A stretch of DNA of 64,000 bases from Pseudomonadota bacterium (GCA_043821645.1 JBDRCO010000037.1:192001-256000); one strand, 5' to 3'; shown: positions 3,191 through 54,363, counted from the stretch's first letter. Notes: generated from the sequence alone by a model not told the origin. Numbers and translations: made by a program.

Positions 3191-3204
3191 AAACGGTTCG
3201 TTCT

Positions 3205-6623: not shown

Positions 6624-8405
<1,782 letters not shown>

Positions 8406-8415
8406 GGGGCGTGCC

Positions 8416-15473: not shown

Positions 15474-16250
15474 GTGACGCTCAAGCCAGCCGCAGTTTTT
15501 GCTCTCGCCTTGCTCCCCGTCTCCGCCCTGGCGCAGGAGGCCACGAAGACCGATTCGGACACCGCGGCCGCCGCCGAGGAGTCGCAGGAGCAGGTCGAGG
15601 CCACGGACAGCGTGGGCAAGCCCCTGAGAGACCGCATCAAGGCGGTCAGTCGCAAGTCGTTCTTGAAGAAGAACCGCTTCGAGGCCACCCCGGCCTTTGG
15701 GCTCAGCGTCAACGATGCGTTCTTCCGTAACTACATCGTCCAGCTCGACGCCACCTACCACATCGTCGAGAGCTTCAGCCTCGAGCTGCGTCTGGGGCTG
15801 CCGGTGTTCGGTGAGCCGCTGGACCCGGTGGAGTTCCTGCGCAGCGAGTACAAGACCCTGACCAACATCGTGCGGCCGGCCTACCTGGTGCAGCTCTCTG
15901 GCAACTTCACGCCGCTGTACGGCAAGGTGGCCATGTTCAGCGAGTGGATCTGGCAGTACGACCTGTACCTGGCTGGCGGCGTCGGCGTCACCGGTATCGG
16001 TATCCTCACCGGTGCGCGCCTGGACATGTCGGCCATCGCCCACATGCCCTCGATGAACGTGGGCGTGGGCATGCGCTCCTTCATCACCCGCTGGATGGTC
16101 GTTCACCTGGACGCGCGCGACTACATCTACCCGTCGGTGACCGACGGCCTGAGCAACATCCAGAACCTGCTCGTCGTGAGCGTCGGCGTGGGCTTCTTCT
16201 TCCCCTTCGACTTCGAGTACGAGTACGAAGGCTACAAGGTGGTGCAGTGA
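15474..16250 (+). CDS. Outer-membrane beta-barrel protein, GltA/GltB (NfsA/B) family
   Basis: Motifs DRIKAVSRKSFLKKNRFEATP, SVNDAFF, FTPLYGK, GVGMRSF and a C-terminal GFFFP. GTG start after GGAG, then a signal peptide. GltA and GltB cannot be distinguished by eye. Confidence 0.82.
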   Translation: MTLKPAAVFALALLPVSALAQEATKTDSDTAAAAEESQEQVEATDSVGKPLRDRIKAVSRKSFLKKNRFEATPAFGLSVNDAFFRNYIVQLDATYHIVESFSLELRLGLPVFGEPLDPVEFLRSEYKTLTNIVRPAYLVQLSGNFTPLYGKVAMFSEWIWQYDLYLAGGVGVTGIGILTGARLDMSAIAHMPSMNVGVGMRSFITRWMVVHLDARDYIYPSVTDGLSNIQNLLVVSVGVGFFFPFDFEYEYEGYKVVQ

Positions 16251-18226
16251 TGAAGCGACGACGGGGCCTCGTGCTCCTGCCGGCGCTGCTGCTGGCAGCA
16301 CCGTCCCTGGCCCAGGACGACGACATGACCTTTGGCGCCCTCGAGGTGGAGGTCAAGAGCGTCGAGCGCGAGAAGTACGAAGAGGCGGTCAAGAAGACCA
16401 AGAGCAACCAGTGCGACGGAGCTATCTTTGACTTCTTCGACCTCATGCAGAACGAGAAGGCGAAGGAGTTCCACGAGGGCAGCGAGTACTACGTGGCCAA
16501 GTGCCTGTACCGGCTCGGCCTGTACCACGCGTCGCTGCACCGCTTCGCCAAGATTCTCGAGAAGGGCGAGAAAGGGCCGTACTTCCAGACCAGCCGCGAG
16601 TGGCTGTTCTTCATCTCGCGCAAGGTGCAGGACCAGGAGGCCGTGCTCGACGTCATCGCCAAGTACGCGGACAAGGGCGGGGTGCCCGAGAACTACGCTG
16701 ACGAGTTTCATTTCCTGCTTGGCAAGTACTACTACCTGATGGGCCTGGGCGACCTGGTGCCCGATCCCGAAGCCGGACGCGCCAGCGAGGCCGAGCAGAA
16801 GGCCAAGGAGGACAAGGCCAAGGAGGATGACGAGAAGGGCTTTGACTTCGGCGCCGACGAGGCCGGGGGTGGCGGTGGCGATGTGGCTGCGGCACCGGGC
16901 TCGGGTGGTGATTTCGATTTCGACCTGGGCGACCTGGATGGGAAGCCCAAGAAGAAGAAGACCAGCAAACCCAAGCCCAAGCCCAAAGCCAAGCCGGACG
17001 ACGACGGCAGCGATACCGCCAAGCCTGCGGGCGACGAGGGCATGGGATTCACCATCGGCGACGACAGCGGCGAGGGTGGGGGAGAGGGCGGTCCGGCCAA
17101 GGACGTCCAGGCCTACAAGCGAGCCGGGCAGCTGCCTGCGGGCGAGGCCATGGAACGCGCCGTGCAGCATCTGGAGCAGGTCCCCGAGGGGACCAAGTAC
17201 TACGCCCGGGCGCGCTACCTCGAGGGTCTGGTGTACTACCAGCGCGAGAATTACGATCGAGCGGTCGAGGCCTTCCGGCACGTGGTGCGTCTGACCCACC
17301 CCAAGACCGGGGCCTACAAGAGCCCCAAGCTGCGCGAGATGGCCTTCTTCTCGCTCGCACGGGTTCACTACGGATTCAAGCAGTTCCGCTACGCGATCTT
17401 CTACTACGACAAGATCAGCCGCAATTCCGAGGCCTGGCTCGACGCCATCTTCGAGAGTTCGTGGGCCTATTTCCGTCTGGGTAACTACGAAAAGAGCCTG
17501 GGCAACCTGATCACGCTGCACTCGCCCTTCTTCATCGACGAGTACTACCCCGAGTCACTCATCCTCAAGGCGGTCACCTACTACGAAAACTGCCGCTACC
17601 CCGAGGCGCGCGACATCCTCGAGGAGTTCGAGACCCACTACGGCGGCGTCCGCGACGAGCTGGTCAAGCTCACCGCGGAGTCGAAGACACCCGAGGACTA
17701 CTACAAGCTGCTCGACGACTTCGCCACCAAGGAGCCCAGCGAGACCAACCGCCTGACGCTGCGCATGTTGCGCCTGGCGCTCTCGGACCAGGGCGTCAAG
17801 ACCCTCGACCAGGCGGTGAACGAGATCGAGGCCGAGGCCGAACGCATGGGCCAGGTCGTGCCGGGCCTGATCTCCAGCCCCCTGGGCGACGAGATCAAGC
17901 AGTCGCTCGAAGCACGTCGGCAGAAGATCGTCGAGCGCGCTGGCACCATCCTGCGCGACAAGCTGTCGGCCGAACGCGACGACCTCAAGAGCCTGTCGTC
18001 GCAGCTGTTCCGCATCAAGTTCGAGATCGCGAAGATGGAAAAGGAACAGATCGAGGCCGAGATGCGCGGCGAGAGTCTGGTGGTGCCGCTCAGCGAGTAC
18101 CTGTTCTCGGCCGCAGTCGACGACGAGCACGAGTTCTATCCCTTCGTCGGTGAATACTGGCGCGACGAGCTGGGGACCTACGAGTACACCCTGACCCAGG
18201 GCTGCCGACCGGAGTCCAGCGAATGA
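16250..18226 (+). CDS. gltC: Adventurous gliding motility protein GltC (TPR)
   Basis: Motifs YYVAKCLYRLGLYHASL, WLDAIFESSWAYF, LGNLITLHSPFF, YYPES and C-terminal PFVGEYWRDELGTY. ATG overlaps the upstream TGA. Confidence 0.88.
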   Translation: MKRRRGLVLLPALLLAAPSLAQDDDMTFGALEVEVKSVEREKYEEAVKKTKSNQCDGAIFDFFDLMQNEKAKEFHEGSEYYVAKCLYRLGLYHASLHRFAKILEKGEKGPYFQTSREWLFFISRKVQDQEAVLDVIAKYADKGGVPENYADEFHFLLGKYYYLMGLGDLVPDPEAGRASEAEQKAKEDKAKEDDEKGFDFGADEAGGGGGDVAAAPGSGGDFDFDLGDLDGKPKKKKTSKPKPKPKAKPDDDGSDTAKPAGDEGMGFTIGDDSGEGGGEGGPAKDVQAYKRAGQLPAGEAMERAVQHLEQVPEGTKYYARARYLEGLVYYQRENYDRAVEAFRHVVRLTHPKTGAYKSPKLREMAFFSLARVHYGFKQFRYAIFYYDKISRNSEAWLDAIFESSWAYFRLGNYEKSLGNLITLHSPFFIDEYYPESLILKAVTYYENCRYPEARDILEEFETHYGGVRDELVKLTAESKTPEDYYKLLDDFATKEPSETNRLTLRMLRLALSDQGVKTLDQAVNEIEAEAERMGQVVPGLISSPLGDEIKQSLEARRQKIVERAGTILRDKLSAERDDLKSLSSQLFRIKFEIAKMEKEQIEAEMRGESLVVPLSEYLFSAAVDDEHEFYPFVGEYWRDELGTYEYTLTQGCRPESSE

Positions 18227-21200: not shown

Positions 21201-21669
21201 CATCGCCAGCCTGTACCGGATCGGCGATGTGCACCTGCACCTGGTCGACGCCATCGTCAAGACCCCGGCACCCAAGGGGCTCAACGAGGAGCAGGCGGAC
21301 CTGTTCAAGGAAAAGCTGCGGGAGCAGACCTTCCCCATCGAGGAGCAGGGCGCCGAGGCCTTCAAGCTGTGCGTGGACAAGTCCAAGGAGCTCAACCTGT
21401 TCAATCAATGGACCCAGAAGTGCATCAACTTCCTCGAGGAGAACCGGCCGGATCAGCACCCGCAGATCATCGAGGAGCTGGCGGAGGTGAAGGCCGAGGT
21501 CCCCTTGCCGCCACCGCATGGCCTGGTGACCACGCTCAAGGCAGTGGCGCCGGCGAAGTCGGGCACGGCGGAATCTGCCAGTCCCGACGACAAGAAAGAT
21601 ACCGAAGGCGCCAAGACCGATGCACCCGCGGCCGAGGCTGCCGATGAGCCCGAGGAGGATGCATCATGA
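18223..21669 (+). CDS. gltD: Gliding motility TPR protein GltD (AgmU)
   Basis: Signal peptide, many TPRs, PDAWLAFGEYYF, YAVYKQGWCYYN, RFFYAELLY and C-terminal WAIASLYRIG..P.GL..E..YNQW-type region. Lies between gltC and gltE. Confidence 0.85.
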   Translation: MMHPSILSVLGRARALIACAALGLAAPALVAAVLVPSSAEAKKKKKKKEKDKPSGDRKAPGKDESDLGEKGSYGTPEVVKEKERTKVQLEARPTLTLDDFRSRKEAEKKEKIDEQLKYIEKIISMEPAKTEMPGLLFQKAELYLEQSEFFFFAGMGLDDKILEARDKKNKKDQKKLEAEKKKWLEESKRWKKDGVEIFAEIVDKYPTFDRLADVVYSLAQAYWDGGDKDKAIPYYRQLITKYPQSQFVPDAWLAFGEYYFGKADIQRALEAYQRTASYEDSKVFAYAVYKQGWCYYNKGQFEEAGDKFKEVILYSELNPKLLGDKKITLGREARKDFVVTFSHYGDPRRAVAEFKELTQDDAEQRKMLERLSDIYFGEGKDREAIVMYRTLMAMTPDDTRNPFFQARIVTCAKRLNDKRFVVKMARELVDHFQRVRTFAAAHKDDPKLNQEKVATDLADAEDLSDNTLRVLATTWHNEARKTKDDETFELAYELYGDYLDLFPDKKPAYEIRFFYAELLYHLERFEKAGDEYTKVLLIDPAKGKWSPASAEEAVRAYDEAVSDFDRKNKRPPLKGEAALKPLPVPNIKKKLLMASDNYIKHFPKGSIVVECKYKIAKTLYDYNNFDQAAERFLEITTDYPDNSRAEQAANLTLDIYNLRQEWKKLNGAARSFSQSRPLMKNEAFAKTLSEILENSSFKLIADEYEVPGDNLGAAKQYLKFVDEFPKSELADKAMINAASNFLKAGKDKESIQVRLRLVKAYPKSPLVPDAMYAIAESYEQVVDYKDAAEWLEKFVKLYPKDPRSKDALFNASIYREGLGQFKQALSTREEYLKTYPKADDVATIYLSLAGLHKQMSDEKKASEVYQAWGKKYGKGKDEEWDAKFKAVDVMARDKKSKKQAEQLEQGLVREYVRLGKKGWSQFKNETDAQARIRFTLADEEYEKYKKVKIEYPRDLNKKTIKKFQDTLKAKVAGKDKIKGVYTEVVKLGRPEWAIASLYRIGDVHLHLVDAIVKTPAPKGLNEEQADLFKEKLREQTFPIEEQGAEAFKLCVDKSKELNLFNQWTQKCINFLEENRPDQHPQIIEELAEVKAEVPLPPPHGLVTTLKAVAPAKSGTAESASPDDKKDTEGAKTDAPAAEAADEPEEDAS

Positions 21670-23108
21670 AGAGGCTGCTCCTCCCCTTGTTCATGGGCAT
21701 CGTGCTCGTACTTGGCGCCTGCCCCAAGCGTCCCGATGTGGTGCAGCCCGACACCCGGCCCGGGGATGGAACCGGGCGGCCGCCAGGTGATAGCGGCACC
21801 CAGGCTCAGACCAGCACCAATGCCGAGGCTGCGCGCGCCTTCGATGACGGGCTCAAGATCCAGGCCTCGGATCCCGAGCGAGCCATCGCACGCTTTGAGG
21901 CCGCAGCCGCGGCAGACAAGAGCTTCGGCGTGGCCCTGTACAATGCTGGCGCCCTCGAGGAGAAGCGCGGCAACGACGCGCGAGCCGCCGAGCTGTACGA
22001 GAAGGCCATCAAGGCCGATGCGACCCTGGACGAACCCGCAGACAACCTGGCGCTCATGCTGCTCAGACAGGACAAGAAGGCCAAGGCCAAGCGTGTGCTC
22101 GAGGCCGCCATTGCCCAGAACCCCAAGGCCGTGGGGCCACGCCTGCGCCTGTCGCGCATTGCCCTGAACGACAACCAGCTGCAGGAGTCCTACGGCCTGG
22201 CCCGCGAGGCCCTGGCGCTCGAGGCCAAGAGCCTCGAGGGCTATCGGATCATGGCGGACATCGCTCTGAGGCAGAAGCAGCCAGCCATGGCCAAGCTGCT
22301 CATCCTCAAGGGATACAAGCTGGCGGCCGAGGATCCCTACCTGCATTTCCTGATGGCCGAGACCCTCTTCGCCGAGAAGGAGAACTCGGCCGCGGTGCTC
22401 GAGTACCGCAGGGTGCTGGCCGCGGATCCCAACTTCCTCCCGGCGCGGGTGCGTCTGGCCTACATGGCGATGGGGCAGCGCGACTTCGGCACTGCCGAGC
22501 AGCATTTTGACGCCCTGGCCAAGGCGAATCCCAAGGATGGAGGTGCCCTGGTCAACCTGGGTCTGGCCTACAAGGGGCAGGCGCGGTTTGACGAGGCCAA
22601 AGCCACTTACGAGAAGGCCCTCGCCGTCGACAAACGCAATACCGAGGCTCTGTTTGCCCTCGGTGTGCTCGAGCTCAGGCACCTCAACGACCCCAAGACT
22701 GCCAAGAAGCACCTCAAGGCCTACGTGAGCGACAACCCGAGAGTTTCGGGCAAGCATCCGGTGTTCAAGCTGCTCGAGGAGGCCGACATCCTCATCTCGG
22801 CGCAGGCCGAGGAAACGCGTCAGATGGCGCTGATGAAGAAGCAGCAAGAGGAGATGGAGCGCAAGGCCGCCGAGGACGCCAAGCGCGCCGCAGAAGAGGC
22901 CAAGAACAAGCCGCCCGAGGCTCAGCCACCGGCGGAGGGGCAGCCTCCTGCCGATGCGCCACCGGCCGAGGACACTCCGCCTCCTGCGGACAATTCGGTG
23001 CCGGCCGAGGGCACGAGTTCGGCAGCCGCGCCGGCAGCAGAGGCTCCCGCGCCGGCCCCGCCAGCCAGGGAGGACGAGCCTGGGGAGCCCGAGGAGCCTG
23101 GTCCATGA
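21666..23108 (+). CDS. gltE: Gliding motility TPR lipoprotein GltE (AglT)
   Basis: Lipobox LGAC, TPR array and a Pro/Ala/Glu-rich C-terminal tail. ATGA-coupled to gltD. Confidence 0.8.
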   Translation: MKRLLLPLFMGIVLVLGACPKRPDVVQPDTRPGDGTGRPPGDSGTQAQTSTNAEAARAFDDGLKIQASDPERAIARFEAAAAADKSFGVALYNAGALEEKRGNDARAAELYEKAIKADATLDEPADNLALMLLRQDKKAKAKRVLEAAIAQNPKAVGPRLRLSRIALNDNQLQESYGLAREALALEAKSLEGYRIMADIALRQKQPAMAKLLILKGYKLAAEDPYLHFLMAETLFAEKENSAAVLEYRRVLAADPNFLPARVRLAYMAMGQRDFGTAEQHFDALAKANPKDGGALVNLGLAYKGQARFDEAKATYEKALAVDKRNTEALFALGVLELRHLNDPKTAKKHLKAYVSDNPRVSGKHPVFKLLEEADILISAQAEETRQMALMKKQQEEMERKAAEDAKRAAEEAKNKPPEAQPPAEGQPPADAPPAEDTPPPADNSVPAEGTSSAAAPAAEAPAPAPPAREDEPGEPEEPGP

Positions 23109-23184: not shown

Positions 23185-23439
23185 ATGAAAAGATTCGCGA
23201 TCTCCCTGTTTTGTGCCCTGGTCCTCGCGCTGGCCGGGGCGACAGCCATGGCCCAGGATGAGGGTGCCATCTACAAGAAAAAGACCGTCATCAACTTCGA
23301 GGACGACACCATCGAGGGCGATCTCAAGACCCCGGATGCCGAATACCTCGAAGCCAGAAAGCGTATGCGCCACGCCAGCTTGATCAAGATCCGGGACAAT
23401 TTCAGGCGCACCGTGCTGCAGTCGGTGACGAATCTGTAG
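23185..23439 (+). CDS. cglF: Gliding motility protein GltF (CglF)
   Basis: Signal peptide, then KKKTVINFEDDTIEGDLKTPD..Y..RK...SLIKIRDNF...VLQSV. GGAGG Shine-Dalgarno. Confidence 0.88.
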   Translation: MKRFAISLFCALVLALAGATAMAQDEGAIYKKKTVINFEDDTIEGDLKTPDAEYLEARKRMRHASLIKIRDNFRRTVLQSVTNL

Positions 23440-23539: not shown

Positions 23540-25672
23540 ATGACAAACCGAGTCTCCCTGAAGATCAGCCGCGCTGGCGAGGATGTTGGTGTCGAGACCT
23601 TCGATCGCGACATCATCAAGATCGGTCGCCTGGCCTCGGCGCATCTCAAGCTCGACGATCCCAAGGTCTCCCGCATCCACGCTGTCATCGAGGTGACCGC
23701 GAGCGGCGAGGACATCTCCATCATCGACATGGGATCGGCCGAGGGGACCTTCGTCAACGGTGACAAGGTCACCAAGGTGAAGCTCAAGGACGGCGACGAG
23801 ATCCGGCTGGGGGACACCCGGCTGGTGTTGCAGCTCGGTGAGGTTGCGGACACCGTGGCGGAGGCGGCCGCGGCCGCTGTGGTCGTCGCCGAGGATCCCG
23901 CTGCCACCGAACTGGTGCGCCCCTCACCCAGCCAGCACGAGATGGCGACCCTGGCCGAGCTGCCCCTGGGGGACGATACCGGCGGCGTGTTCGACGGACT
24001 CTCGACGGAGGACGCCCACGCCGTGGCCGCCGCGGTGGTAACTCCCGTCCTGGCCTCGCAGCCACCGGCGGCTGCCCCGCAGCCTGCGCCCGTGGTTTCG
24101 TCCATGCCCCCGACCGTCACCGAGGTTGCCGCGTCCGGTGCTGTGAGCATGAGCGAGGACGGACTGGCGGAGTGGTCGGATCCTCCTCCCGTGGCGGCGG
24201 ACTTGCTGTCGCCGGGCGTGGCGGGAAATGCGCTGGTGGCACCGATGCCCACCGCGCCGTCGATGGAGTGGTACGACCCCTTTGGCGAGCTTCACAATGT
24301 CCTCATCGAGCCCGAGGAAAAGGTCAGCAAGGCCAACCGTGTGCTCGAGGTCGCCGTGATGTGGGACGGGCGACTGCTCGATGTCCGCCACTACAACGAG
24401 CCCAAGCTCGTGACCATGGGCGAGAGCAAGAAGGCGGACATCTTCGTGGTCAGCGAGGGCTTGCCGTCCAACGAGTTCCCGCTGATCCGGTTCAGCGATG
24501 GCGAGTACGTGCTGACCTACTTTGACGGCCTCGACGGCGCGATTCTCCGCGACGGTACCAGCGTGCCCCTGGGCGCGCTCAAGGGGCAGCCAGACGATAC
24601 CTTCTCGAAGAGCTACCAGTTCCCCTTGCCCCTGGAATCCTTGACCACCATCGACTACGGCGGATTGACCCTGCAGCTTCGCTTCGTGCAGAAGCCGGGC
24701 ATCATTCCCGGTGGCCCGTTTCAGGAGATCAACTACAACTGGCTCAACGTGTTTCTGGTGTCGCTGTTCCTGCATGTGGGCTTCTTCGCCACCACGGCGC
24801 TCTATCCTTACGACACGACCTCACTCGAGGAGGATCTGTTCTCGTCGCCCAATCGTTTTGCCCAGTTCATCCTCAACCCGCCGGAGAAGGAGAAGAACTC
24901 CCTTCTCAGCAAGCTGATGAAGCAGAAGGAGGGGGAGAGTTCGGCCAAGCACGCGGGTGCCGACGGCAAGGCGGGCAAGCAGGACGCCAAGGACACCGGC
25001 AAGCGCATGGCCAGCAAGGCCGAGAAGCCCACCAACGAGATGGTCGTCCAGAACAAGCTGAACCAGCTCTTTGGCAAGGGCGGTGGCAGCGAGGGCGTGT
25101 CGTCGGTGTTCGGAGGTGGTCTGGGCGGTGAGCTGGTGGGCGCCCTCGGTGGTGTCACTGGCGCGCAGATCGGTGATTCCTACGGCTTTGGTGGTCTGGG
25201 GCTGCGTGGCCACGGACCGGGTGGTGGAGGATCGTCGACGACGACCTTCGGCGTCGGTTCCATCGGCACCCGCGGTCGCGGTGGTGGCTCCTCGGGTTAC
25301 GGCTCGGGCTCCGGCGGCCTGGGTGGCAAGTCGGACCGCAACGTGGCCATCTCCCAGGGTACTCCTGTCATCATGGGCTCCCTCGACAAGGAGATCATTC
25401 GCCGCGTCATCAAGGAAAACATCGCGCAGATTCGGTACTGCTACGAGCGAGAGCTGGCGCGCAGTCCCGGTCTGTACGGCAAGATCATGGTCAAGTTCAT
25501 CATCGCCGGTACCGGGCAGGTTTCCAACGCCCAGGTCATCGAGAGCACGATGAAGAACCCCGAGGTCGAGAGCTGCATCTCCAACAAGGTGCGCGGCTGG
25601 AGATTCCCCAAGCCCAAGGGCGGTGGCATCGTGATCGTCAGTTATCCCTTCATCTTCAAGCAGAGTGGCTGA
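23540..25672 (+). CDS. gltG: Gliding motility protein GltG (FHA + TM + Gly-rich + TonB-C-like)
   Basis: FHA domain (IKIGRL..VSRIHA..DMGSAEGTFVNG), TM segment SLFLH, Gly-rich linker and C-terminal GSLDKEIIRRVI..IRYCYE..FPKPKGGGIVIVSYPF. Confidence 0.92.
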   Translation: MTNRVSLKISRAGEDVGVETFDRDIIKIGRLASAHLKLDDPKVSRIHAVIEVTASGEDISIIDMGSAEGTFVNGDKVTKVKLKDGDEIRLGDTRLVLQLGEVADTVAEAAAAAVVVAEDPAATELVRPSPSQHEMATLAELPLGDDTGGVFDGLSTEDAHAVAAAVVTPVLASQPPAAAPQPAPVVSSMPPTVTEVAASGAVSMSEDGLAEWSDPPPVAADLLSPGVAGNALVAPMPTAPSMEWYDPFGELHNVLIEPEEKVSKANRVLEVAVMWDGRLLDVRHYNEPKLVTMGESKKADIFVVSEGLPSNEFPLIRFSDGEYVLTYFDGLDGAILRDGTSVPLGALKGQPDDTFSKSYQFPLPLESLTTIDYGGLTLQLRFVQKPGIIPGGPFQEINYNWLNVFLVSLFLHVGFFATTALYPYDTTSLEEDLFSSPNRFAQFILNPPEKEKNSLLSKLMKQKEGESSAKHAGADGKAGKQDAKDTGKRMASKAEKPTNEMVVQNKLNQLFGKGGGSEGVSSVFGGGLGGELVGALGGVTGAQIGDSYGFGGLGLRGHGPGGGGSSTTTFGVGSIGTRGRGGGSSGYGSGSGGLGGKSDRNVAISQGTPVIMGSLDKEIIRRVIKENIAQIRYCYERELARSPGLYGKIMVKFIIAGTGQVSNAQVIESTMKNPEVESCISNKVRGWRFPKPKGGGIVIVSYPFIFKQSG

Positions 25673-25811: not shown

Positions 25812-26453
25812 ATGCGCGTGCGAATGCGGCTGCTGATCGTGATGCTGGGGACTCTGCTGGTGGCTCCGTCGCTGTGGGCCCAGGGCGAGGTGCGCGGCAC
25901 CGAGGTGGGCGAGGGCGAGGGCGAGGAGACGGTAGGCGAGAGCAAGATCGCCAAGATTCGCGCTGTCGAGCGCGGACTGTGGTTCAACGTCGACTACGGT
26001 CCGTACTACCAGATCCCCCTCGGCCTGCCGCAGGAGATGTGCTTCCCGTGCATCGGCAGCCAGATCGGCGTGCGCGTCGGCTACGACATCCTCAATAACC
26101 TCACCGCCGATGCCTTCGTGCGCGGGTCCTTTGCCAACTTCAAGACCGAGTATGCTCGCCTTTACTCTGGCGACATCGCCTCCTACTACACGGGCGGCTC
26201 GGTGCGCTTCTCCTACATCACCACCGAGCGTTTTCATGCCACCGCGCGGCTCGGCGGCGGCGTCGCCTTCCTGTTCCCTGCCGAGTCTGCGGGAGGGTCC
26301 TTCCTCGCGCCAGCTGCGGATCTGGGACTGGGCATCGAGTACTTCACGCGACTGCGCCACTTCTCGGTGGGGTGCGAGATCGAGACCCTGGCTTTCCTGT
26401 GGCCTTTCAGCGTGGGTTTCTCGGTTCTGCCCACTTTCAAGTACACCTTCTAG
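25812..26453 (+). CDS. cglE: Outer-membrane beta-barrel GltH (CglE)
   Basis: Motifs RAVERGLW, VGYDI, GIEYFTRLRHFSVG and terminal KYTF. Follows gltG. Confidence 0.82.
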   Translation: MRVRMRLLIVMLGTLLVAPSLWAQGEVRGTEVGEGEGEETVGESKIAKIRAVERGLWFNVDYGPYYQIPLGLPQEMCFPCIGSQIGVRVGYDILNNLTADAFVRGSFANFKTEYARLYSGDIASYYTGGSVRFSYITTERFHATARLGGGVAFLFPAESAGGSFLAPAADLGLGIEYFTRLRHFSVGCEIETLAFLWPFSVGFSVLPTFKYTF

Positions 26454-45717: not shown

Positions 45718-45829
45718 GCCCGGTTTCTCGGCGTCCGTCATCCGGTCGAGCCAGCGTTGACTTCGCGGTGTGCGCTCACGACAATTCCGGCGCAGCGCCA
45801 GGGATGACGTCGCGTCGGAGCAGAAAACC

Positions 45830-47533
45830 ATGAAACTCGTCGAGTGTGTGCCCAATTTTTCCGAGGGCCGCGATCGCGCGGTCATCGACGCCATCGCCGC
45901 GGCCATCACCTCGGTCGACGGCGCGGCACTGCTGGATGTGGATCCGGGTGCGGCCGCGCATCGCACCGTGGTGACCTTCGTGGCGCCGCCCGAGGCCGCG
46001 GTCGAGGCAGCCTTTCGCGCCATGCGCGTGGCCAGCGAGCGCATCGACATGAGCCACCACCACGGCGAGCACCCGCGTATGGGCGCCACCGACGTGTGCC
46101 CCTTTGTGCCGGTCGCCGGTGTCACCATGGACGAGTGTGTTGCCCTGGCCCGGCAACTGGGGCAACGTGTGGGTCGCGAACTCGGCATCCCGGTGTACCT
46201 GTACGAGGCGGCGGCCACGCGCCTCGAGCGCGCGAACCTTGCCGACATCCGGCGCGGCGAATACGAGGCCCTGGCCGACAAGCTGCGCGATCCCGCCTGG
46301 CTCCCCGACTTCGGGCCTGCCGAGCTCAACGCGCGCAGCGGCGCCTCCGTCATCGGTGCCCGCGAGTTCCTCATCGCCTTCAACGTCAACCTCAACACCC
46401 GCGACAAGAAGCTGGCTCACGACATCGCCCTGGACCTGCGCGAACAGGGCCGATCGGCCCGAGGTGACGACGGAAAATTCCTGCGGGATGCCCAGGGCAA
46501 CAAGGTGGCCGTGCCCGGTCTGTTCAAGGCGGTCAAGGCTGTGGGTTGGATCATCGACGAGTACGGCTGTGCCCAGATCTCGATGAACTTGACCGACTAC
46601 AAGGTCTCGCCGCCGCACCTGGTGTTCGACAGGGCCTGCGAGCTGGCCTGGCAGCGTGGCCTGCGGGTCACCGGCAGCGAACTGGTCGGCCTCATCCCCA
46701 AGACCGCCCTGCTCGAGGCCGGGCGGTACTACTTGCGCAAGCAGGGCAAGAGCGCTGGCGTCGGTGACGACGAGCTGGTGCGCGTGGCCGTGCAGTCCAT
46801 GGGTCTCGATGACGTGGCGACCTTTGACCCGGATCAGAAGATCATCGAGCACCGCACCGGAGCCAGGGACGGCCGCCTGGTGTCCATGACAGGCCGGCAC
46901 TTCGCGGAGACCCTGGCCTCGGACGCGCCCGCACCGGGAGGTGGGTCTGTTGCGGCTCTGGCGGGATGCCACGCGGCGTCCCTGGTGGCCATGGTGGCCT
47001 CATTGACCCACGGCAAGAAGGGCTACGAGGCCGTGGCGTCGGAGATGGAGACCATTGCGGTCGAGGGCCATGCGCTCAAGGAGAGCCTGCTGGCTGCTGT
47101 CGACGCCGACACCGCGGCCTTTGATGCGGTCATGGCCGCGATGAAGCTGCCCAAGAGCAGTGACGGCGAGAAGAAGGCTCGCGACCTCGCCCTCGAGCAG
47201 GCCAACAAGTGGGCGACGCTGGTGCCGCTGTCGACCCTGCGCCAGTGCCTGCGGCCTGCCGAGCTGGCTCGCGCGGTGGCCGACAAGGGCAACCCCAACA
47301 GCCTGTCCGACGCGGGTGTCGCCGCCCTGATGGCTGCGGCCGGCGCCCGGGGCGCCCTGTACAACGTGCTGATCAACCTGCCCGGCGTGAAGGATCCGAG
47401 CTTTCGCTCGACCACGGCCAGCGAAGCTCGCGCGCTGTACCAGCAGGTGCAGCGAACCTGTGACGAGGTCGCCATTGTGGTCGAGGAGAGGCTGGCCAAG
47501 AGCCTGATGACGAGCGGCGAAGGCGACCGCTGA
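45830..47533 (+). CDS. ftcD: Bifunctional glutamate formimidoyltransferase / formiminotetrahydrofolate cyclodeaminase
   Basis: Motifs LVECVPNFSEGRD, HRTVVTF, HPRMGATDVCPFVP, GAREFLIAFNVNL and QISMNL, followed by a cyclodeaminase domain with APGGGSVAAL, GNPNSLSDAGV and NVLINL. Confidence 0.95.
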   Translation: MKLVECVPNFSEGRDRAVIDAIAAAITSVDGAALLDVDPGAAAHRTVVTFVAPPEAAVEAAFRAMRVASERIDMSHHHGEHPRMGATDVCPFVPVAGVTMDECVALARQLGQRVGRELGIPVYLYEAAATRLERANLADIRRGEYEALADKLRDPAWLPDFGPAELNARSGASVIGAREFLIAFNVNLNTRDKKLAHDIALDLREQGRSARGDDGKFLRDAQGNKVAVPGLFKAVKAVGWIIDEYGCAQISMNLTDYKVSPPHLVFDRACELAWQRGLRVTGSELVGLIPKTALLEAGRYYLRKQGKSAGVGDDELVRVAVQSMGLDDVATFDPDQKIIEHRTGARDGRLVSMTGRHFAETLASDAPAPGGGSVAALAGCHAASLVAMVASLTHGKKGYEAVASEMETIAVEGHALKESLLAAVDADTAAFDAVMAAMKLPKSSDGEKKARDLALEQANKWATLVPLSTLRQCLRPAELARAVADKGNPNSLSDAGVAALMAAAGARGALYNVLINLPGVKDPSFRSTTASEARALYQQVQRTCDEVAIVVEERLAKSLMTSGEGDR

Positions 47534-47546
47534 GGGGCGAACGAGG

Positions 47547-47569
47547 GGCCCGGGAGCCCGCTCCGGGTC
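47547..47569. terminator. Possible bidirectional hairpin between convergent ftcD and hutI
   Basis: GGCCCG(G)GAG-CCCG-CTCCGGGTC stem with no U tract. Confidence 0.3.
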
Positions 47570-47573
47570 AGAC

Positions 47574-48797
47574 TCAGGCCTCTCGCTGGTACACCAGCCG
47601 GCCCGCCTTGACCACGCGCTCGACGTGGTCTGCCCCCATGTCGGTGATCACATGGCGGGGCTCCGTGGTGTCGAGGATGACCAGATCACACTGCGTGCCC
47701 ACGTGCAGGCGGCCGATGTCGTCGCGACCCAGCGCGCAGGCAGCCTGGCGCGTGATGCCCAGCAGCGCCTCCTCGACGCTGAGACCACAGCGGGTGACGG
47801 CCAGGGTGGCGGCCAGCAGGAGGTTCTCGCAGTTGGCGGATCCCGGGTTGAAGTCGCTGGCCACGGCCACGCGCAGGCCCGCGTCGACGAGGGTGCGACC
47901 CGGTGCCGGCTTGCCCTTGCCCAGGTAGATCTCGCAGGTCGGCAGGATCACGGCGACCACGTCTGCCCGCCGCAGCTCCCGGATCTCCCTCTGGCGCGCC
48001 ACCTCGAGGTGGTCCGCGCTCACAGCCTGCAACTCGGCGGCCAGGCTGCAACCACCGAGACGATGAAACTGGTCGGTGTGCAGGCGGGCCTCGAGGTTGA
48101 GCTGCTGGCCGCGCATCAAGATGCGACGCGCCTGATCGACCGAGAAGGCTCCTTGCTCGACGTAGACGTCGCAGAATCGAGCCAGACCAGCTGCGGCTAC
48201 CGCGGGCAGCATCTCCTCGATCACGAGGTCCGTGTAGGCCTCCGTGCGGTCCCGGTACTCCGGCGGCACGGTGTGCGCGCCAAGGAAGGTCGGTGTGATC
48301 TCCACGGGCTGCAGGGCCGCCAGCACGCGCAGCACGCGCAACATCTTCAGCTCGTCGTCGAGCGACAGGCCATAACCGCTCTTGATCTCGATGGTGGTGA
48401 CACCCCGCTGCAGGGCGCGGTGCAGGCGCGGTATCGCCGCATCGACCAATTCCTCCTCGCTGGCAGCCCGGACCGCCTTGACCGTTTTCACGATCCCGCC
48501 ACCCGCAGCCGCGATGTCCAGATACGTAACGCCGCGCGCTCGTGCCGCGAACTCCTGACTGCGATCCCCGACGTGGAGCAGGTGGGTGTGGCAGTCCACC
48601 AGTCCTGGCAAAACGGCATGCCCCCGGGCATCGAGGATGGGGGTTCCGAGGGGCACGGGTGGGAGCTGGGCTTGGGGGCCGTACCAGGACACCAGGTCGT
48701 CGGCTGCGACCAGGGCTGCGTTGCGGATCACGCCCAGGCTGCTGCCGGCTCCAGGCTCGCAGGTGACCAGGTTCCCGATGTTGTGCACCACCAGCAT
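47574..48797 (-). CDS. hutI: Imidazolonepropionase
   Basis: Motifs PGLVDCHTH, AGGGI..TV, EIKSGYGL, TFLGAH, SADHL and ASDFNPGS. Confidence 0.95.
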   Translation of the reverse strand: MLVVHNIGNLVTCEPGAGSSLGVIRNAALVAADDLVSWYGPQAQLPPVPLGTPILDARGHAVLPGLVDCHTHLLHVGDRSQEFAARARGVTYLDIAAAGGGIVKTVKAVRAASEEELVDAAIPRLHRALQRGVTTIEIKSGYGLSLDDELKMLRVLRVLAALQPVEITPTFLGAHTVPPEYRDRTEAYTDLVIEEMLPAVAAAGLARFCDVYVEQGAFSVDQARRILMRGQQLNLEARLHTDQFHRLGGCSLAAELQAVSADHLEVARQREIRELRRADVVAVILPTCEIYLGKGKPAPGRTLVDAGLRVAVASDFNPGSANCENLLLAATLAVTRCGLSVEEALLGITRQAACALGRDDIGRLHVGTQCDLVILDTTEPRHVITDMGADHVERVVKAGRLVYQREA

Positions 48798-49630: not shown

Positions 49631-51826
49631 ATGCGTGTCGTCATAGCCAGCGTGCCCTTTGCCACTCCCTTTGCTCCGGCCCTCGGTGGTCCCCTGGTGG
49701 CCGCCGAGTTCGAGGCGCAAGGCGTTGAGGCCAGGGTTGTCGACGGGTCCCTGCTGTGTCTGGAGAGCCTGTGGTCGCCGGACTGCCTGCGCAGGGGTAT
49801 CGAACACCTGCGCGATCAACTGGGTCACCTCGAGCGGCACGACACGCTGTCGCGCGCCGCCTTCGCCGGCTACCAGGAAGCCACCCGCGCCGTGCTCGGT
49901 GCACAGCAGGTCCTTGCCCAGGTCGGGGGCGCACTGGCGACACTTCGAGGCCACGGAACGGGCGAGATCCCCGAGCCGGCCACCTATGATCGCGCGCTCG
50001 GGATCGTGCAGGCAGCCCTCGGCCTGGCCTCGGCGCCTTTCTGGCCCGAGCAGGTCTCCCTGCACCGGTACCGTCCCCCGGCTCCGCTGCGCAGCGTCGA
50101 CGATCTGCTGCGCCATGCGCGCAGACCTGTGGCCGAAAGCTTGTTTGGCGAGGCCCTGAACTCCATCGTCACCGCGGCGGTGCTTGAGGACGGTGGGCCC
50201 GGGCCGGATCTGGTGGGCCTCTCGATCACTTTCCCCGAGCAGCTCGGACCCGCGGCCATGCTCGGGCGCTGTCTGCGCGAGCGTGGCTTTCGCGGTCACA
50301 TTGCCTGGGGCGGCGCTCTCATGGCACACCTGGCTGACGATCTGCTGCGTGCGACGCCGCTGCTGCAGGCGGGTCTCGTCGACGTCATTGTGCCCCATCC
50401 CGGAATTCAACCCCTGCTGCGATGGCTCGAGGCGGGATCGTCCACGATACCCGTGGCTGGAGCCCTGGTGCCAGGGCAGCCCTGGGTGCCCGGGACCCTC
50501 GACGTCCACGAACACGCGCGCTGGGTCGAGGCCATGCCCACGCCTCGCTTCGACGATCTGCCGCTGGATCGCTACCTCAGCCCACGCCCCGTGCTGCCCC
50601 TGCTGACGACGCTGGGCTGCTACCACCAGCGCTGCACCTTCTGCGATCACTTTCACTCCGTCTGTCGTTACCGGCCGCGATCCGTGAACCATGTTCTGCG
50701 CGACCTGCGTGTCCTTCACGAACGCTTCGCGTGCCGCGACATCTACCTCGTCGACGACTGCACACCACCCCGGATGCTGCGCCAGCTCGCCCAGGGGCTC
50801 CTGCAGTGGCGTGACGACGGGGGTCCCGAGCTTGGATGGATCACCGAGTGCCGCGCCGAGCGCGCGCTCCTGGCAGAGGGTCTGCTCACAGATCTCGGGC
50901 GAGCCGGCTGCCGCATGCTGCTGTTCGGTCTGGAGTCCGCCGACGACGGGGTCCTCGAGGCCATGGGCAAGGGCACGGACAGCGCGACCCTGAGTGCGGT
51001 GCTGCGGGCGGTTCACGCCGCTGGCATCGGCACGTGGTGCTTTTACATGGTTGGCTACCCCGCCGAGGACCCTGTGGCGGCCCAGGTCACCCAGGATTTT
51101 CTGGCCGCCCACGCCGAGGTGGTGGACGTGCTGGCAGGCGGACCCTTCGTGGTCACGCGACACGCCCCGGTGGCCCTGGATCCGGGGCGGCATGGCGTCC
51201 GGCTCGTCGGCGAGCGCGCCTCGGGATCCCGCAAGGCTCCGCCTCCTCGTCTCGACCTGCTGCTGCCGCACCAGGGCGGCCGGATGAGCGAGGCCCAGCA
51301 GGGGCGTGTGCTGCGCGCGCTGCTCGAGGACCCGCACCTGCAGCACTACCGGCACCCGCTGGTGGTCGAGGCGCATACCCTGTTCCTGGACCGTCGCTAC
51401 TACCACCAGCACGACCTGCGGCCTCCTTCCGCAGCTTCATCCCCACCCTCGGCGTCCACGGACGTCTGGCGTGCCTGTCTCGTCGAGCCGGTACCAGACC
51501 TCAGCGTGCAATACTTTCGCTTCCCCACCCAGGCCAGCCGCGTGCCATCGGCAGGCAAGATCACACAGGCTCCGACCGCGGTGCTTTTCGACCTGGCCCG
51601 GGGGCGTTCACTCGAGGTCACGGTGCCGGTGGCCGCCCTGGTCGAACGCTGCCTGGCGGCGCCGCGAACCGTCGACGAGCACATCCATCACACCGTGGAG
51701 CTGGGGCAAGGGGACGACGCCGAGGTGGAGCAGGCGATCACGCAGCTGGTCGAGGCCGGTTTCCTCGTGGTCCAGCGCGAGCGGTCGGACTTGACACCGG
51801 GTACCAGTCCAGGGGAGACCCCATGA
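49631..51826 (+). CDS. B12-binding-type radical SAM protein with C-terminal PqqD/RRE-like domain
   Basis: Motifs DLVGLSITFPEQL, GHIAWGGA, PRFDDLPLDRYLSP, GCYHQRCTFC, YRPRS, LVDD, FGLES, MGKG and MVGYP.E. The C-terminus LFDLARG..VAALVERC..RTVDE..AITQLVEAGFL resembles a winged-helix RRE. Confidence 0.88.
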   Translation: MRVVIASVPFATPFAPALGGPLVAAEFEAQGVEARVVDGSLLCLESLWSPDCLRRGIEHLRDQLGHLERHDTLSRAAFAGYQEATRAVLGAQQVLAQVGGALATLRGHGTGEIPEPATYDRALGIVQAALGLASAPFWPEQVSLHRYRPPAPLRSVDDLLRHARRPVAESLFGEALNSIVTAAVLEDGGPGPDLVGLSITFPEQLGPAAMLGRCLRERGFRGHIAWGGALMAHLADDLLRATPLLQAGLVDVIVPHPGIQPLLRWLEAGSSTIPVAGALVPGQPWVPGTLDVHEHARWVEAMPTPRFDDLPLDRYLSPRPVLPLLTTLGCYHQRCTFCDHFHSVCRYRPRSVNHVLRDLRVLHERFACRDIYLVDDCTPPRMLRQLAQGLLQWRDDGGPELGWITECRAERALLAEGLLTDLGRAGCRMLLFGLESADDGVLEAMGKGTDSATLSAVLRAVHAAGIGTWCFYMVGYPAEDPVAAQVTQDFLAAHAEVVDVLAGGPFVVTRHAPVALDPGRHGVRLVGERASGSRKAPPPRLDLLLPHQGGRMSEAQQGRVLRALLEDPHLQHYRHPLVVEAHTLFLDRRYYHQHDLRPPSAASSPPSASTDVWRACLVEPVPDLSVQYFRFPTQASRVPSAGKITQAPTAVLFDLARGRSLEVTVPVAALVERCLAAPRTVDEHIHHTVELGQGDDAEVEQAITQLVEAGFLVVQRERSDLTPGTSPGETP

Positions 51827-51879
51827 AGGAGCCACAGAGACAGCAGGTGCGGTCTCTGGCCACAGCAGAGGAGGATCGC

Positions 51880-52104
51880 ATGCCCGAGGCCATCATCATC
51901 TACGGCAAGGACAGCTGACCCTACACCTCGGACGCCCGTGAGGCGTTCGCCAGCCAGGGCCGCCAGGTCGAATACCACGATGTCACGCGCGACCGTGGGC
52001 AGCTGCAGGCCATGCTCAAGGCCTCTGGCGGCCGTCGCCAGGTGCCCGTCCTCGTCGACGCGGGCAAGGTGACCATAGGCTACGGCGGCTCCTGAGGCGT
52101 GTGA
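51880..52104 (+). CDS. Glutaredoxin-like selenoprotein with two selenocysteines (UxxT site and C-terminal U-x-x-stop; UXX-star type)
   Basis: Reading through TGA 51916-18 and TGA 52093-95 gives MPEAIIIYGKDSUPYTSDAREAFASQGRQVEYHDVTRDRGQLQAMLKASGGRRQVPVLVDAGKVTIGYGGSUGV*. Glutaredoxin signatures: IYGK..(C/U)PY, cis-Pro VPV, GG. GAGGAGG Shine-Dalgarno; hairpins after both UGAs. An alternative in-frame ATG lies at 51823. Confidence 0.88.
51919..51959 (+). promoter_or_regulatory. Bacterial SECIS-like hairpin for the first UGA
   Basis: Stem GGACGCC/GGCGTTC (51930-51948) starts after an 11-nt spacer from the UGA; loop CGTGA contains G; lower pairing CCCT/AGGG. Confidence 0.65.
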
Positions 52105-52110
52105 GCACAA

Positions 52111-52128
52111 GATCCGCGGTCGCGGATC
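52111..52128 (+). promoter_or_regulatory. Bacterial SECIS-like hairpin for the second UGA (in the 3' UTR)
   Basis: GATCCGC-GGTC-GCGGATC, 15 nt after UGA 52093-95. The GGUC loop resembles the E. coli fdhF SECIS loop. Confidence 0.65.
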
Positions 52129-53128
52129 AGGTCGTCCCGGGGACGGGGTTGGCAAACAGCTCGACACCGCCACCGGTGTGCCAGAACACCACGGTCTCGT
52201 CGGCGGCGATGCGCTCCTGCTCGAGGTAGTCCAGCAGCGCAGCCGCTGCCTTGCCGGTGTACACGCGATCGAGAAAGATCCCCTCGAGGCGCGCGAACAC
52301 CTCGATCGCATCCAGGGTCTCCGCCGTGGGCACGCCGTAGCCCTCTCCAACGTAGCCGTCGTCGACGCGGACGTCGCGGGCGCTGACCCGGGTACCGGTG
52401 AGCCGCGCAGCCTTCTGGGCCAGCATGAAGACATCGTTGGCCAGACCGAGCTGATCGCTGGCCACCGAGATGCCCGTCACCCGTCCTGACCATCCGGCCA
52501 GGGCGCGCCCGACCACCAGTCCCGCCTGGGTGCCGCCGGTGCTCGAGGCCAGGACGATGTGATCACAGGTGTCGCGCAGGCGCTTGAAGTCGCGCATCAG
52601 CTCGCCGAATCCTGCCACGTAGCCCAGCACGCCCACCGCCGAGGACCCGCCGAGGGGCATGACGTACACGTGTCGGCCGCGCGCTCGCAGCACCTCCGCC
52701 AGATCCACCGCAGCCTGCTCCCAGTCGTCCCAGTCCTCGGAATCGCAGAACTTGAGCTGGGCGCCCAGGATCTCGTCGAGGATCAGGTTGCCCGAGGGTC
52801 GGGCCGGAGGGGTGCCGCCGAGCACCAGGTAGCAGTCCATCTCGGCGCGCGCGGCAGCGGCGGCGGCCATGCGGCAGAAGTTGGACTGCACGGCGCCGAC
52901 GGCGATCAGGGTGTCGGCGCCGGCGCGCTGGGCATGTGCCATCAGGAACTCGAGCTTGCGCGCCTTGTTGCCACCGAAGGCAAAGCCCGTGAGATCGTCC
53001 CGCTTGCAGAACAGCCGGCAGCCGTAGAGGCGGCTCAGGCGGCTCAGGGGGGTCAGGGGGGTGGGCAGTTGAGCCAGGGACACCCTGGGATGCTGGGCCA
53101 GAAGCTGCTCGAACTGGGCCGGTTCCAT
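52127..53128 (-). CDS. D-cysteine desulfhydrase family PLP enzyme
   Basis: Motifs KRDDLTG..GGNKARKLEFL, GAVQSNFCR, STGGTQAGL, LDRVYTGKA and WHTGG. It has T/T rather than the E/L residues that mark ACC deaminase. Confidence 0.9.
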   Translation of the reverse strand: MEPAQFEQLLAQHPRVSLAQLPTPLTPLSRLSRLYGCRLFCKRDDLTGFAFGGNKARKLEFLMAHAQRAGADTLIAVGAVQSNFCRMAAAAAARAEMDCYLVLGGTPPARPSGNLILDEILGAQLKFCDSEDWDDWEQAAVDLAEVLRARGRHVYVMPLGGSSAVGVLGYVAGFGELMRDFKRLRDTCDHIVLASSTGGTQAGLVVGRALAGWSGRVTGISVASDQLGLANDVFMLAQKAARLTGTRVSARDVRVDDGYVGEGYGVPTAETLDAIEVFARLEGIFLDRVYTGKAAAALLDYLEQERIAADETVVFWHTGGGVELFANPVPGTT

Positions 53129-53290
53129 GTGTGCCTCGGATTCGGGTCGCATCTTAGGCAGCGGACGACGTTGTCACCAGGGGAGAGCGGTCGGTGATCT
53201 CCGAGCAGTGGGTTGGCTTTTTTTATAGAATCCTATTTTTCGAGGGTGTCATATATCTGTATGATATAACAAGAGAATAAACCGCTCATG

Positions 53291-53429: not shown

Positions 53430-53577
53430 GACAGCGACCCAGGTTCGGAACGGCCAGAATCGTTGAGGCTGCTTGTGCAACTGCGCCGCGCCCTCTGCGG
53501 GGGGGCGGGCCCACAACACGAGCGCGGGATCCGGGTGTACCGAGGAGGTCCCGACGCTTGCAGTGAGTGAGCGCACG

Positions 53578-54363
53578 ATGATGGAAGAGCTCGATTTCCG
53601 TTCACGCTACATGGAGCTGGATGACAAGACCGACGAACTGAAGGAGTGGATTGACGAGTACGGTCCGCGCTGTTGCGAGTTCAGCGAGCACTTCGAGATC
53701 TCGTGGATCTACCACGAGAATGCCCTCGAGGGCGTGGTGCTGACCTACCACGAGATCAAGGCGGCCATCGACCAGAAGATCATCAGCGACGTCAATCTGA
53801 TCTCGACCTACCAGGAGATCAAGAACCAGAAAGAAGCTGTCGAGTTCGTGCGCCGCGCCGCCGGCAACAAGCGCACACGCATCAATCTCGAGTTCATCAA
53901 GAAGCTGCACGGCATCCTGTGCAATGACGTCGAGGGCAGCGAGGTGGGTCGATATCGCCGCGACATTCCGCTGCACCGCACGTACTTCCACGAGATCACC
54001 CAGCCGGCCAAGATCGCGCCGCGCCTCGCACAGCTCCTGCAGGGCGCCAACAGCAATGACTTCCGGCGCTGGCACCCGATCAAGCAGGCCGCGGCCTTTC
54101 ATCACGAGTTCATGCAGATCTTCCCCTTCTCGGAGCACTCGGGAATGGTCGGCCGCATGCTCATGAACTACTACCTGATGCGCGCTGGCTACATGCCGGC
54201 GGTGATCCACTCTGTCGACCGGCAGCGGTACTACGAGAGCCTGCGCGGTGTGCCGCGCGCCCTGCGGGAGCTCATCGTGGATTCGATGGACAATTCCCTC
54301 GAGAGCGGGATTCGCTACCTGCACGAGCTGGTGCAGGGACCCCAGAGCATGAGCGCCCAGTAA
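53578..54363 (+). CDS. Fic/Fido family protein with degenerate catalytic motif
   Basis: WIYHENALEG, IKKLH, GRYR, AAAFHHEFMQIFPFSEHSGMVGRMLMN (canonical HPFxDGNGRxxR) and DRQRYYESL. Confidence 0.88.
   Translation: MMEELDFRSRYMELDDKTDELKEWIDEYGPRCCEFSEHFEISWIYHENALEGVVLTYHEIKAAIDQKIISDVNLISTYQEIKNQKEAVEFVRRAAGNKRTRINLEFIKKLHGILCNDVEGSEVGRYRRDIPLHRTYFHEITQPAKIAPRLAQLLQGANSNDFRRWHPIKQAAAFHHEFMQIFPFSEHSGMVGRMLMNYYLMRAGYMPAVIHSVDRQRYYESLRGVPRALRELIVDSMDNSLESGIRYLHELVQGPQSMSAQ

Follow-up and report, generated by a model that had tools for sequence, protein, structure and literature searches.

The 64,000-nt stretch GCA_043821645.1 JBDRCO010000037.1:192001-256000 (hereafter, the window) raises the question of whether a 74-codon frame interrupted by two in-frame TGA triplets is a gene and, if so, how it is decoded and what its product does. 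The frame, at 51880-52104 on the plus strand, is absent from the table-11 open reading frame (ORF) list, which shows only a 360-amino-acid (aa) frame ending at the first TGA (Table 1). An initial annotation of this DNA had proposed a double-selenocysteine glutaredoxin-like protein missed by the ORF track, and all of its statements on the sequence were correct: the 74-codon frame behind GAGGAGG, the in-frame TGA at 51916, the end reading GYGGS-TGA-GGC-GTG-TGA, and the lack of the gene in the ORF list. When both TGAs are translated as selenocysteine (Sec, U), the readthrough product is MPEAIIIYGKDS-U-PYTSDAREAFASQGRQVEYHDVTRDRGQLQAMLKASGGRRQVPVLVDAGKVTIGYGGS-U-GV, in which MPEAIIIYGKDS is followed by U-PYT and the tail is GYGGS-U-GV-stop, encoded at its end by TGA-GGC-GTG-TGA (52093-52104). 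No frameshift occurs in the 74 codons. The G+C content at third codon positions is 0.878 for the coding sequence (CDS), 1.00 in codons 1-12 and 0.87 in codons 14-74; other genes of the window range from 0.78 to 0.91. On this and the comparative evidence, we estimate at roughly 0.85 the probability that 51880-52104 is a functional gene, which would encode a 74-residue member of UXX-star selenoprotein family 1 with a minimal glutaredoxin fold and two selenocysteines. The gene belongs to this family, its two recoding sites are conserved, and two hairpins resembling selenocysteine insertion sequences (SECIS) are under selection.

Family membership was assessed by profile scoring of the window protein, with U passed on as C. 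The protein scored 112.3 bits against the hidden Markov model (HMM) NF041114, "UXX-star selenoprotein family 1" (cut-off 72, E 9.3e-33), residues 5-74 covering profile positions 1-70 of 70, and 87.1 bits against the parent subfamily NF041212 (cut-off 66). Conservation therefore continues past the first TGA to the end of the profile, and two curated cut-offs support the proposal of a glutaredoxin-like double-Sec protein of the U-x-x-stop kind; the "UXX-star" family, which the initial annotation had named, exists as NCBIfam NF041114. The Pfam Glutaredoxin cut-off was also exceeded (PF00462, 41.8 bits versus 22.9), and the scores fell below the cut-offs of UXX-star family 3 (53.4 versus 97), UXX-star family 2 (48.8 versus 100), Grx3 (TIGR02181, 38.8 versus 90) and NrdH (TIGR02194, 17.2 versus 85.75). 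Besides its HMM score, the gene shows the other marks of UXX-star proteins, namely the U-x-x-stop end, the UxxT motif (U-P-Y-T, codons 13-16) and two Sec-UGAs, and it lacks both features of a classical glutaredoxin or NrdH, the CPYC or CVQC dithiol and the helix after the Gly-Gly motif. The glutaredoxin active-site context is kept (I-Y-G-K-x-x-U-P-Y and the V-P cis-proline), with Thr at the position of the second Cys. The I-Y-x-K-x-x-C-P-Y context and V-P cis-proline of Grx3 and NrdH align accordingly, and the nearest solved structures by sequence are the Grx3 chains 4tr1 and 3grx (E 4e-7 to 1e-6); unlike these proteins, the window protein has no second active-site Cys, and the structure alignments stop at profile position 68 or earlier.

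The protein is hidden in the sense that the ORF listing missed it, but it is not novel, because a table in a 2026 review (PMC13188914) already lists the family as "Distant Grx-like protein 1" with the motif "UxxT" and 2 Sec. The full-length HMM match, U-P-Y-T, the C-terminal U-x-x-stop and the two Sec residues are all shared with UXX-star family 1, with no difference of substance. Family, motif and double Sec are thus catalogued; the window gene is a new, ordinary member and nothing new in kind, and the interest of the finding lies in a family of unassigned function. The review cites the 2008 GOS paper for family 1, and Haft and Tolstoy 2025 for the related UXX-star family 2 and the HUGP/GUXX-star fusion. 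In the main text of the 2008 paper, "Grx-like, UxxC" was present and "distant Grx-like" was not found. Among the papers searched, the name "UXX-star" was found in the review alone, and a search on selenocysteine and selenoproteomes in myxococci found no paper.

A genome scan limited to one genome per species gave at least 599 pattern matches, at least 555 of which encode a relative, and the best 80 of these loci were fetched; counts out of 81 refer to these loci plus the window. The highest identity among the fetched loci was 66%, so the window's own genome is not among these best 80. When searched with an HMM made from database homologues, each of the 81 sources gave a single match. The C-terminal codon was TGA in 81/81, located two residues past the Gly-Gly turn in 77 and three residues past it in 4, and U-x-x-stop was found in 80/81, the following stop being TGA in 38 genes, TAG in 25, TAA in 17 and absent in one. 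Codon 13 was TGA in 50/81 and a Cys codon in 31/81. In a rapidly built tree with weak support, which covers 75 of the 81 proteins (rows L046, L048, L052, L059, L064 and L074 were omitted before alignment), position 13 changed between Sec and Cys at least 9 times, of which the starred branches force only one change; the window protein grouped with Myxococcota rows on a branch with an SH-aLRT value of 92 that was not starred. The full-length identity of the window protein to 74 relatives is 49-67%. K10, P14, Y15 and cis-Pro56 of the glutaredoxin active-site context are conserved in the relatives, and G67, G69 and G70 (Gly-x-Gly-Gly), ahead of Sec72, are invariant.

Cys at position 72 was found neither among 30 database homologues, 24 of which are truncated exactly at the C-terminal TGA and 6 of which are called with W at both TGA positions, nor among the near relatives (0/81). 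A profile search of 1.84 billion cluster representatives gave 1764 matches at E <= 0.001 and 161 at E <= 1e-10. Of the best 150, which were inspected, 123 had no residue at position 72, 15 had Cys, 9 had Trp, 2 had Thr and one had Tyr. Six of the 15 Cys72 representatives pass the family 1 cut-off and 13 pass NF041212; the six include P0038, which has a T-C-G-V end and shares 46% identity with the window protein. Sec thus has Cys counterparts at both positions 13 and 72, the usual hallmark of a true selenoprotein. On these points and on conservation past the first TGA, the refutation tests set by the initial annotation turned out to support it. All near relatives keep the C-terminal Sec, and Cys72 is found among more distant ones. 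The single gene lacking U-x-x-stop is that of L048 (10001-10260), whose frame continues U-S-A-M-T... despite a SECIS-like hairpin with the loop GGUC; this run-on may be a frameshift, an assembly error or a longer tail. Five other representatives (P0046, P0062, P0070, P0081 and P0157) are 400-1034 aa long with 3-4 separate stretches matching the family profile, and may be tandem glutaredoxin-like domains or read-through translations.

The initial annotation had assigned a hairpin to each UGA, and both hairpins agree with the bacterial SECIS model of Zhang and Gladyshev in loop, stem, spacing and energy. As given in PMC13188914, the model calls for a loop of 3-9 nt with G in its first two positions, a stem of 4-16 bp, a UGA-to-loop distance of 16-37 nt and an energy of -7.5 kcal/mol or lower. 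Hairpin 1 has the core GGACGCC/CGTGA/GGCGTTC at 51930-51948, 11 nt after the UGA; one extra C-G pair extends it to 8 bp, CGGACGCC/CGUGA/GGCGUUCG, with the loop starting 18 nt past the UGA. Both hairpins are the minimum-free-energy folds of their stretches. Because codon 13 is TGA in some relatives and Cys in others, the 42 nt from codon 13 onward, which align without gaps, could be compared between 50 TGA13 genes and 31 Cys13 genes as control. The columns of the window's 8-bp stem were paired in 67.9% of cells in TGA13 genes versus 45.8% in Cys13 genes, and pairing as high was reached by 0/500 shuffles for the former and 158/500 for the latter. Covariation scores (shuffled means in parentheses) were 0.207 (0.136) and 0.113 (0.091), respectively, and slid registers paired in at most 49.0% of cells in TGA13 genes and in 31.7-43.8% in Cys13 genes. 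In TGA13 genes, though not in Cys13 genes, pairing and covariation were thus higher than in any of the 500 shuffles and in any slid register. The loop carried G[G/U] at positions 2-3 in 49/50 TGA13 genes versus 13/31 Cys13 genes (Fisher 7e-9), and the Arg20 codon CGC occurred in 0/50 versus 12/31. The Ala19 codon GCC pairs with Glu21 GAG, and the three TGA13 genes with Glu21 GAA have GCU as codon 19. Hairpin 1 is therefore maintained with covariation in the TGA13 genes only.

Hairpin 2 is GAUCCGC/GGUC/GCGGAUC, with an energy of -13.2 to -14.3 kcal/mol, and is separated by 15 nt from the second TGA and by 6 nt from the stop; it shares its last 2 nt with the stop codon of the convergent downstream gene. 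Its loop starts 22 nt past the UGA, which is the long end of the family range; of the 80 genes whose hairpin qualifies, 5 have this spacing. GGUC is also the commonest SECIS-2 loop of the family (13/81). While bacterial SECIS elements are described as typically lying inside the coding region (PMC13188914), this one lies wholly outside the CDS. When the published criteria were applied with the loop start set at 16-24 nt after the UGA, a conforming hairpin was found in 73/81 family genes (mean -12.7 kcal/mol), compared with 112/405 dinucleotide shuffles (mean -4.5 kcal/mol) and 96/631 ends of neighboring ORFs in the same loci (mean -2.7 kcal/mol). Covariance models trained without the window ranked 52093-52141 as the top match in a search of both strands of its 64 kb, with scores of 15.1 and 16.1 bits (rough E 0.0099 and 0.0089); the next best matches had E 0.3 and 0.35. 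The 31-nt stretch around the hairpin gave a z score of -2.78.

From the sequence and its comparison with relatives, SelB-dependent Sec insertion can be inferred at both UGAs. UGA 51916 would be read as Sec by SelB bound to the hairpin within the CDS, and UGA 52093 by way of the second hairpin, just behind the stop in the 3' untranslated region (UTR). UGA 52102 would terminate translation, since its distance of 13 nt to the SECIS-2 loop is shorter than the 16-37 nt of the model. If so, the gene would be a natural test case of how SelB tells a Sec-UGA from a stop-UGA 6 nt downstream by hairpin distance, 38 of the 81 genes ending in TGA, and the family poses the testable question of how Sec insertion at a site three codons ahead of a UGA stop is directed from a 3'-UTR hairpin. 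The gene would also imply that its source decodes selenocysteine and, as the initial annotation held, has SelABCD; this source is a myxobacterium, as the gliding genes GltC, GltE, GltG, CglE and CglF place the window in Myxococcota.

Several results weigh against this reading. Taken alone, the hairpins are unremarkable for DNA of 66.5% G+C, with z scores of -1.07 (40-nt stretch) and -1.05 (48-nt stretch), and 33/200 and 29/200 shuffles folded at least as well as the stretches of hairpins 1 and 2. Overall folding energy after codon 13 was similar in TGA13 and Cys13 genes (means -13.5 versus -14.1 kcal/mol, p 0.91), and the generic SECIS criteria did not discriminate between them (35/50 versus 18/31, p 0.27); only the position-specific test separates the two groups. 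Rfam gave no match at gathering thresholds and only chance-level matches at E up to 10. For SECIS-2, RNAalifold on a MAFFT alignment gave no consensus in fixed columns, and the register slid by +1 paired better than the proposed one (68.1% versus 57.5%), even after a covariance-model re-fit of the alignment (66.3% versus 62.2%), a problem caused by the variable size of the loops (3 to 5 nt). The window contains no tRNA, and hence no tRNA-Sec, and no selA, selB or selD match was found among the 33 ORFs scanned. It is the protein match to NF041114 and the comparison with 80 related loci, not the hairpins alone, that carry the weight of the case. No tRNA-Sec was found in the 50 of the 80 related loci that were scanned either. 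In L002 and L011, loci that belong to different phyla, the selenoprotein gene is immediately preceded by a tRNA cluster (Pro, Arg, Arg, His, Lys; 7923-8535 and 2504-3696, respectively). Among five open stretches with TGA in the intergenic gaps of the window, no further selenoprotein gene was found, with a filter of low sensitivity that missed the known one.

Three other explanations of the locus itself have to be considered. The hairpin at 52111-52128 could be a terminator or an mRNA-stabilizing stem shared by two convergent genes, in which case the frame would end at UGA 52093. The stem does fall in the 22-nt gap that separates the two genes, and it folds alike on both strands (-13.2 and -13.3 kcal/mol), but no U-run follows it, no terminator-like site was called in the window, and only 1 of 73 family hairpins is followed by a U-run. 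Moreover, the hairpin keeps a fixed distance from the UGA, its loop starting 16-22 nt downstream in all 80 genes with a qualifying hairpin, whichever strand the downstream neighbor occupies (minus in 45, plus in 33). Two codons and a stop are also kept after the UGA in 80/81 genes, and a comparable hairpin is present at only the 96/631 other gene ends given above, which together make this explanation very improbable. Two in-frame stops within 74 codons, and the absence of Sec machinery from the 64-kb window, would also suit a decaying glutaredoxin pseudogene with two nonsense mutations, or a relic left after loss of Sec decoding. Both TGAs, however, fall exactly on the two recoding positions of the family, both hairpins carry family-typical loops (CGUGA and GGUC), and the frame, which is free of frameshifts, retains its third-position G+C past the first TGA and its full-length identity to 74 relatives; decay therefore hardly seems credible. 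As for the antisense strand, the 248-aa ORF at 51688-52434 (-) is the longest table-11 ORF over the spot, and ORFs antisense to the gene are open in many related loci. It overlaps, in another frame, the 3' end of a well-supported gene for a pyridoxal phosphate (PLP) enzyme (52127-53152); the antisense ORFs cluster only because they mirror a conserved plus-strand gene, and the family HMM match belongs to the plus frame, so that the chance of a real gene on this strand is practically nil.

With the plus-strand frame taken as a double-Sec gene, the question that follows is what the two residues do. Sec13 would occupy the nucleophile position of the glutaredoxin CPYC motif, with Thr in place of the second Cys. 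Because the protein ends four residues past G70 of the Gly-Gly turn, the usual C-terminal helix is missing, and Sec72 would therefore sit on a short glycine-rich tail beside the active site. In that position, Sec72 could serve as the recycling residue, joined to Sec13 in a diselenide as the initial annotation had suggested, with a selenenylsulfide instead in Cys13 relatives, and some reductant would then reduce the bond. A precedent is described in PMC3866529: in yeast Grx5 and Chlamydomonas Grx3, the Cys just past Gly-Gly pairs with the active-site Cys in a CysA-CysC disulfide and can be the recycling cysteine. As in these monothiol glutaredoxins (PMC3866529), the window protein would have one active-site nucleophile and a second redox residue behind the Gly-Gly turn; it differs from them in having Sec rather than Cys, UPYT rather than CGFS and the residue at GG+2 rather than GG+1, and in ending at that residue without a C-terminal helix. 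By analogy, a recycling role of Sec72 through the diselenide is a tentative assignment, to which we give somewhat less than an even chance. Two published points count against it: in glutathionylated poplar GrxS12, a comparable Cys lies 9.6 A from the active-site adduct and no such bond is formed (PMC3866529), and the Sec residues of the UXX-star family have been suggested to bind metals or other substrates (PMC13188914, citing Haft and Tolstoy 2025 and Haft & Gwadz 2023 for the metal-ligand idea). The gene neighborhood (ORFs within 6 kb in the 81 loci) gave no functional clue either. Under the metal hypothesis, the two selenols would be ligands of soft metals or metalloids (e.g. Hg, As or Cu) in a small chelator or carrier rather than a redox couple, and two selenolates on a flexible tail and loop would indeed suit chelation. 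However, no metal-resistance or transport gene is a conserved neighbor across clades. A ZupT-like gene, absent from the window locus, was present within 6 kb in 14 loci; in 13 of them it is accompanied by the AmgK/MurU-like neighbor of one syntenic clade. The conserved K10, P14, Y15 and cis-Pro56 fit thiol-disulfide chemistry, and chelation thus seems unlikely.

A bolder version of the diselenide proposal, to which we attach a somewhat lower likelihood, is that the C-terminal Sec would be a swinging selenol arm forming a long-range Sec13-Sec72 diselenide across the truncated glutaredoxin fold, a bacterial 8-kDa counterpart of the thioredoxin reductase tail. Mammalian thioredoxin reductase ends in Gly-Cys-Sec-Gly, on a flexible, glycine-flanked tail that shuttles redox equivalents to and from a buried center, and its SECIS has to sit in the 3' UTR because Sec is near the C-terminus. 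The window gene would share with it both a near-terminal Sec, carried by a flexible tail with flanking glycines, and a SECIS in the 3' UTR. The two systems differ in that thioredoxin reductase is a large flavoenzyme with a eukaryotic SECIS and machinery and a selenenylsulfide between adjacent residues, while the window gene has a bacterial hairpin 6 nt past the stop and encodes an 8-kDa protein. If the arm were real, the protein would be either a small peroxidase or a redox couple of very low potential that resists oxidation. The arm Sec would carry the main chemistry; the C-terminal codon is TGA in 81/81, and position 13 has undergone at least 9 changes between Sec and Cys. The family also poses the testable question of whether a diselenide can join two selenocysteines that lie far apart on so small a glutaredoxin scaffold.

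The locus is also a textbook case of a selenoprotein lost by standard gene callers. Among the best 150 cluster representatives, 47 end one residue past the Gly-Gly turn. Many representatives, P0071, P0073, P0084 and P0100 among them, have only 42-56 aa and match the profile from position 18 or later; their starts were evidently called past the first TGA and their ends at the second. Public protein sets thereby lose both ends of the real protein, and other relatives are read with Trp at the TGAs.

Table 1. Coordinates of the selenoprotein gene, its signals and other genes in the window
Feature	Position	Strand	Basis or remark
Shine-Dalgarno GAGGAGG	51868..51874	+	read directly; 5 nt ahead of ATG 51880
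CDS, 74-residue UXX-star family 1 protein, stop included	51880..52104	+	TGA=U translation, NF041114, PF00462, third-position G+C
First Sec-UGA, codon 13, motif U-P-Y-T	51916..51918	+	first Cys position of glutaredoxin CPYC
SECIS-1 (putative), 8-bp stem within CDS, loop CGUGA (51937-51941)	51929..51949	+	minimum-free-energy fold, -12.3 kcal/mol
Second Sec-UGA, codon 72, then Gly-Val-stop (U-x-x-stop)	52093..52095	+	codon conserved in family
True stop UGA	52102..52104	+	read directly; 6 nt past second Sec-UGA, 13 nt before SECIS-2 loop
SECIS-2 (putative), 7-bp stem in 3' UTR, loop GGUC (52118-52121)	52111..52128	+	-13.2 kcal/mol, family comparison
Radical SAM gene, 764 aa	49532-51826		selenoprotein gene 53 nt downstream
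PLP enzyme, D-cysteine desulfhydrase / CuyA kind	52127-53152	-	convergent with selenoprotein gene
GltC	15944-18226		
Tetratricopeptide repeat (TPR) protein, 1148 aa			in gliding cluster, listed between GltC and GltE
GltE	21666-23108		
CglF-like	about 23200-23436		
GltG	23540-25672		
CglE	25812-26453		
TPR-repeat ORF, 4141 aa	26532-38957		
ORF, 1727 aa			no family match; after 4141-aa ORF

The selenoprotein gene stands alone, and its window neighbors, the radical SAM gene and the PLP enzyme gene, are common to none of the 80 related loci. It may be co-transcribed with the radical SAM gene, as no terminator-like site lies in the gap between them. A C-N hydrolase/NAD synthase gene, which appeared to be a cross-phylum neighbor in 26 loci, was rejected, because this cluster consisted mostly of antisense ORFs of the selenoprotein gene joined by single-linkage chaining; the antisense ORF is open in many relatives and thus creates a false "conserved neighbor". 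True synteny (NadE, AmgK/MurU-like, RsmI, ZupT-like) was largely limited to one clade with a U-E-V tail. This clade (mostly U-E-V; Binatia and "delta proteobacterium" metagenome-assembled genomes) comprises L012, L020-L023, L027, L036, L039, L040, L042, L047, L051, L052, L054, L059, L062, L064, L068, L074 and L075, and is syntenic with RsmI, AmgK/MurU-like, split NAD synthase genes and a ZupT-like transporter. In the Cys13 members of this clade, a remnant of the SECIS-1 stem persists.

Elsewhere in the window, an adventurous gliding motility cluster spans 15944-44341, and the histidine-utilization genes FtcD and HutI (45770-48797) lie upstream of the selenoprotein gene. A gene for a Fic/DOC-domain protein (53473-54363) is located downstream of the PLP enzyme gene. 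Near the start of the window, 3103-3657 on the minus strand matched the C-terminal part of the RaSEA-like radical SAM family TIGR01210 with 69.1 bits, below the cut-off; given this match, the plus-strand ORF at 3569-4069 is probably not the gene at this place.

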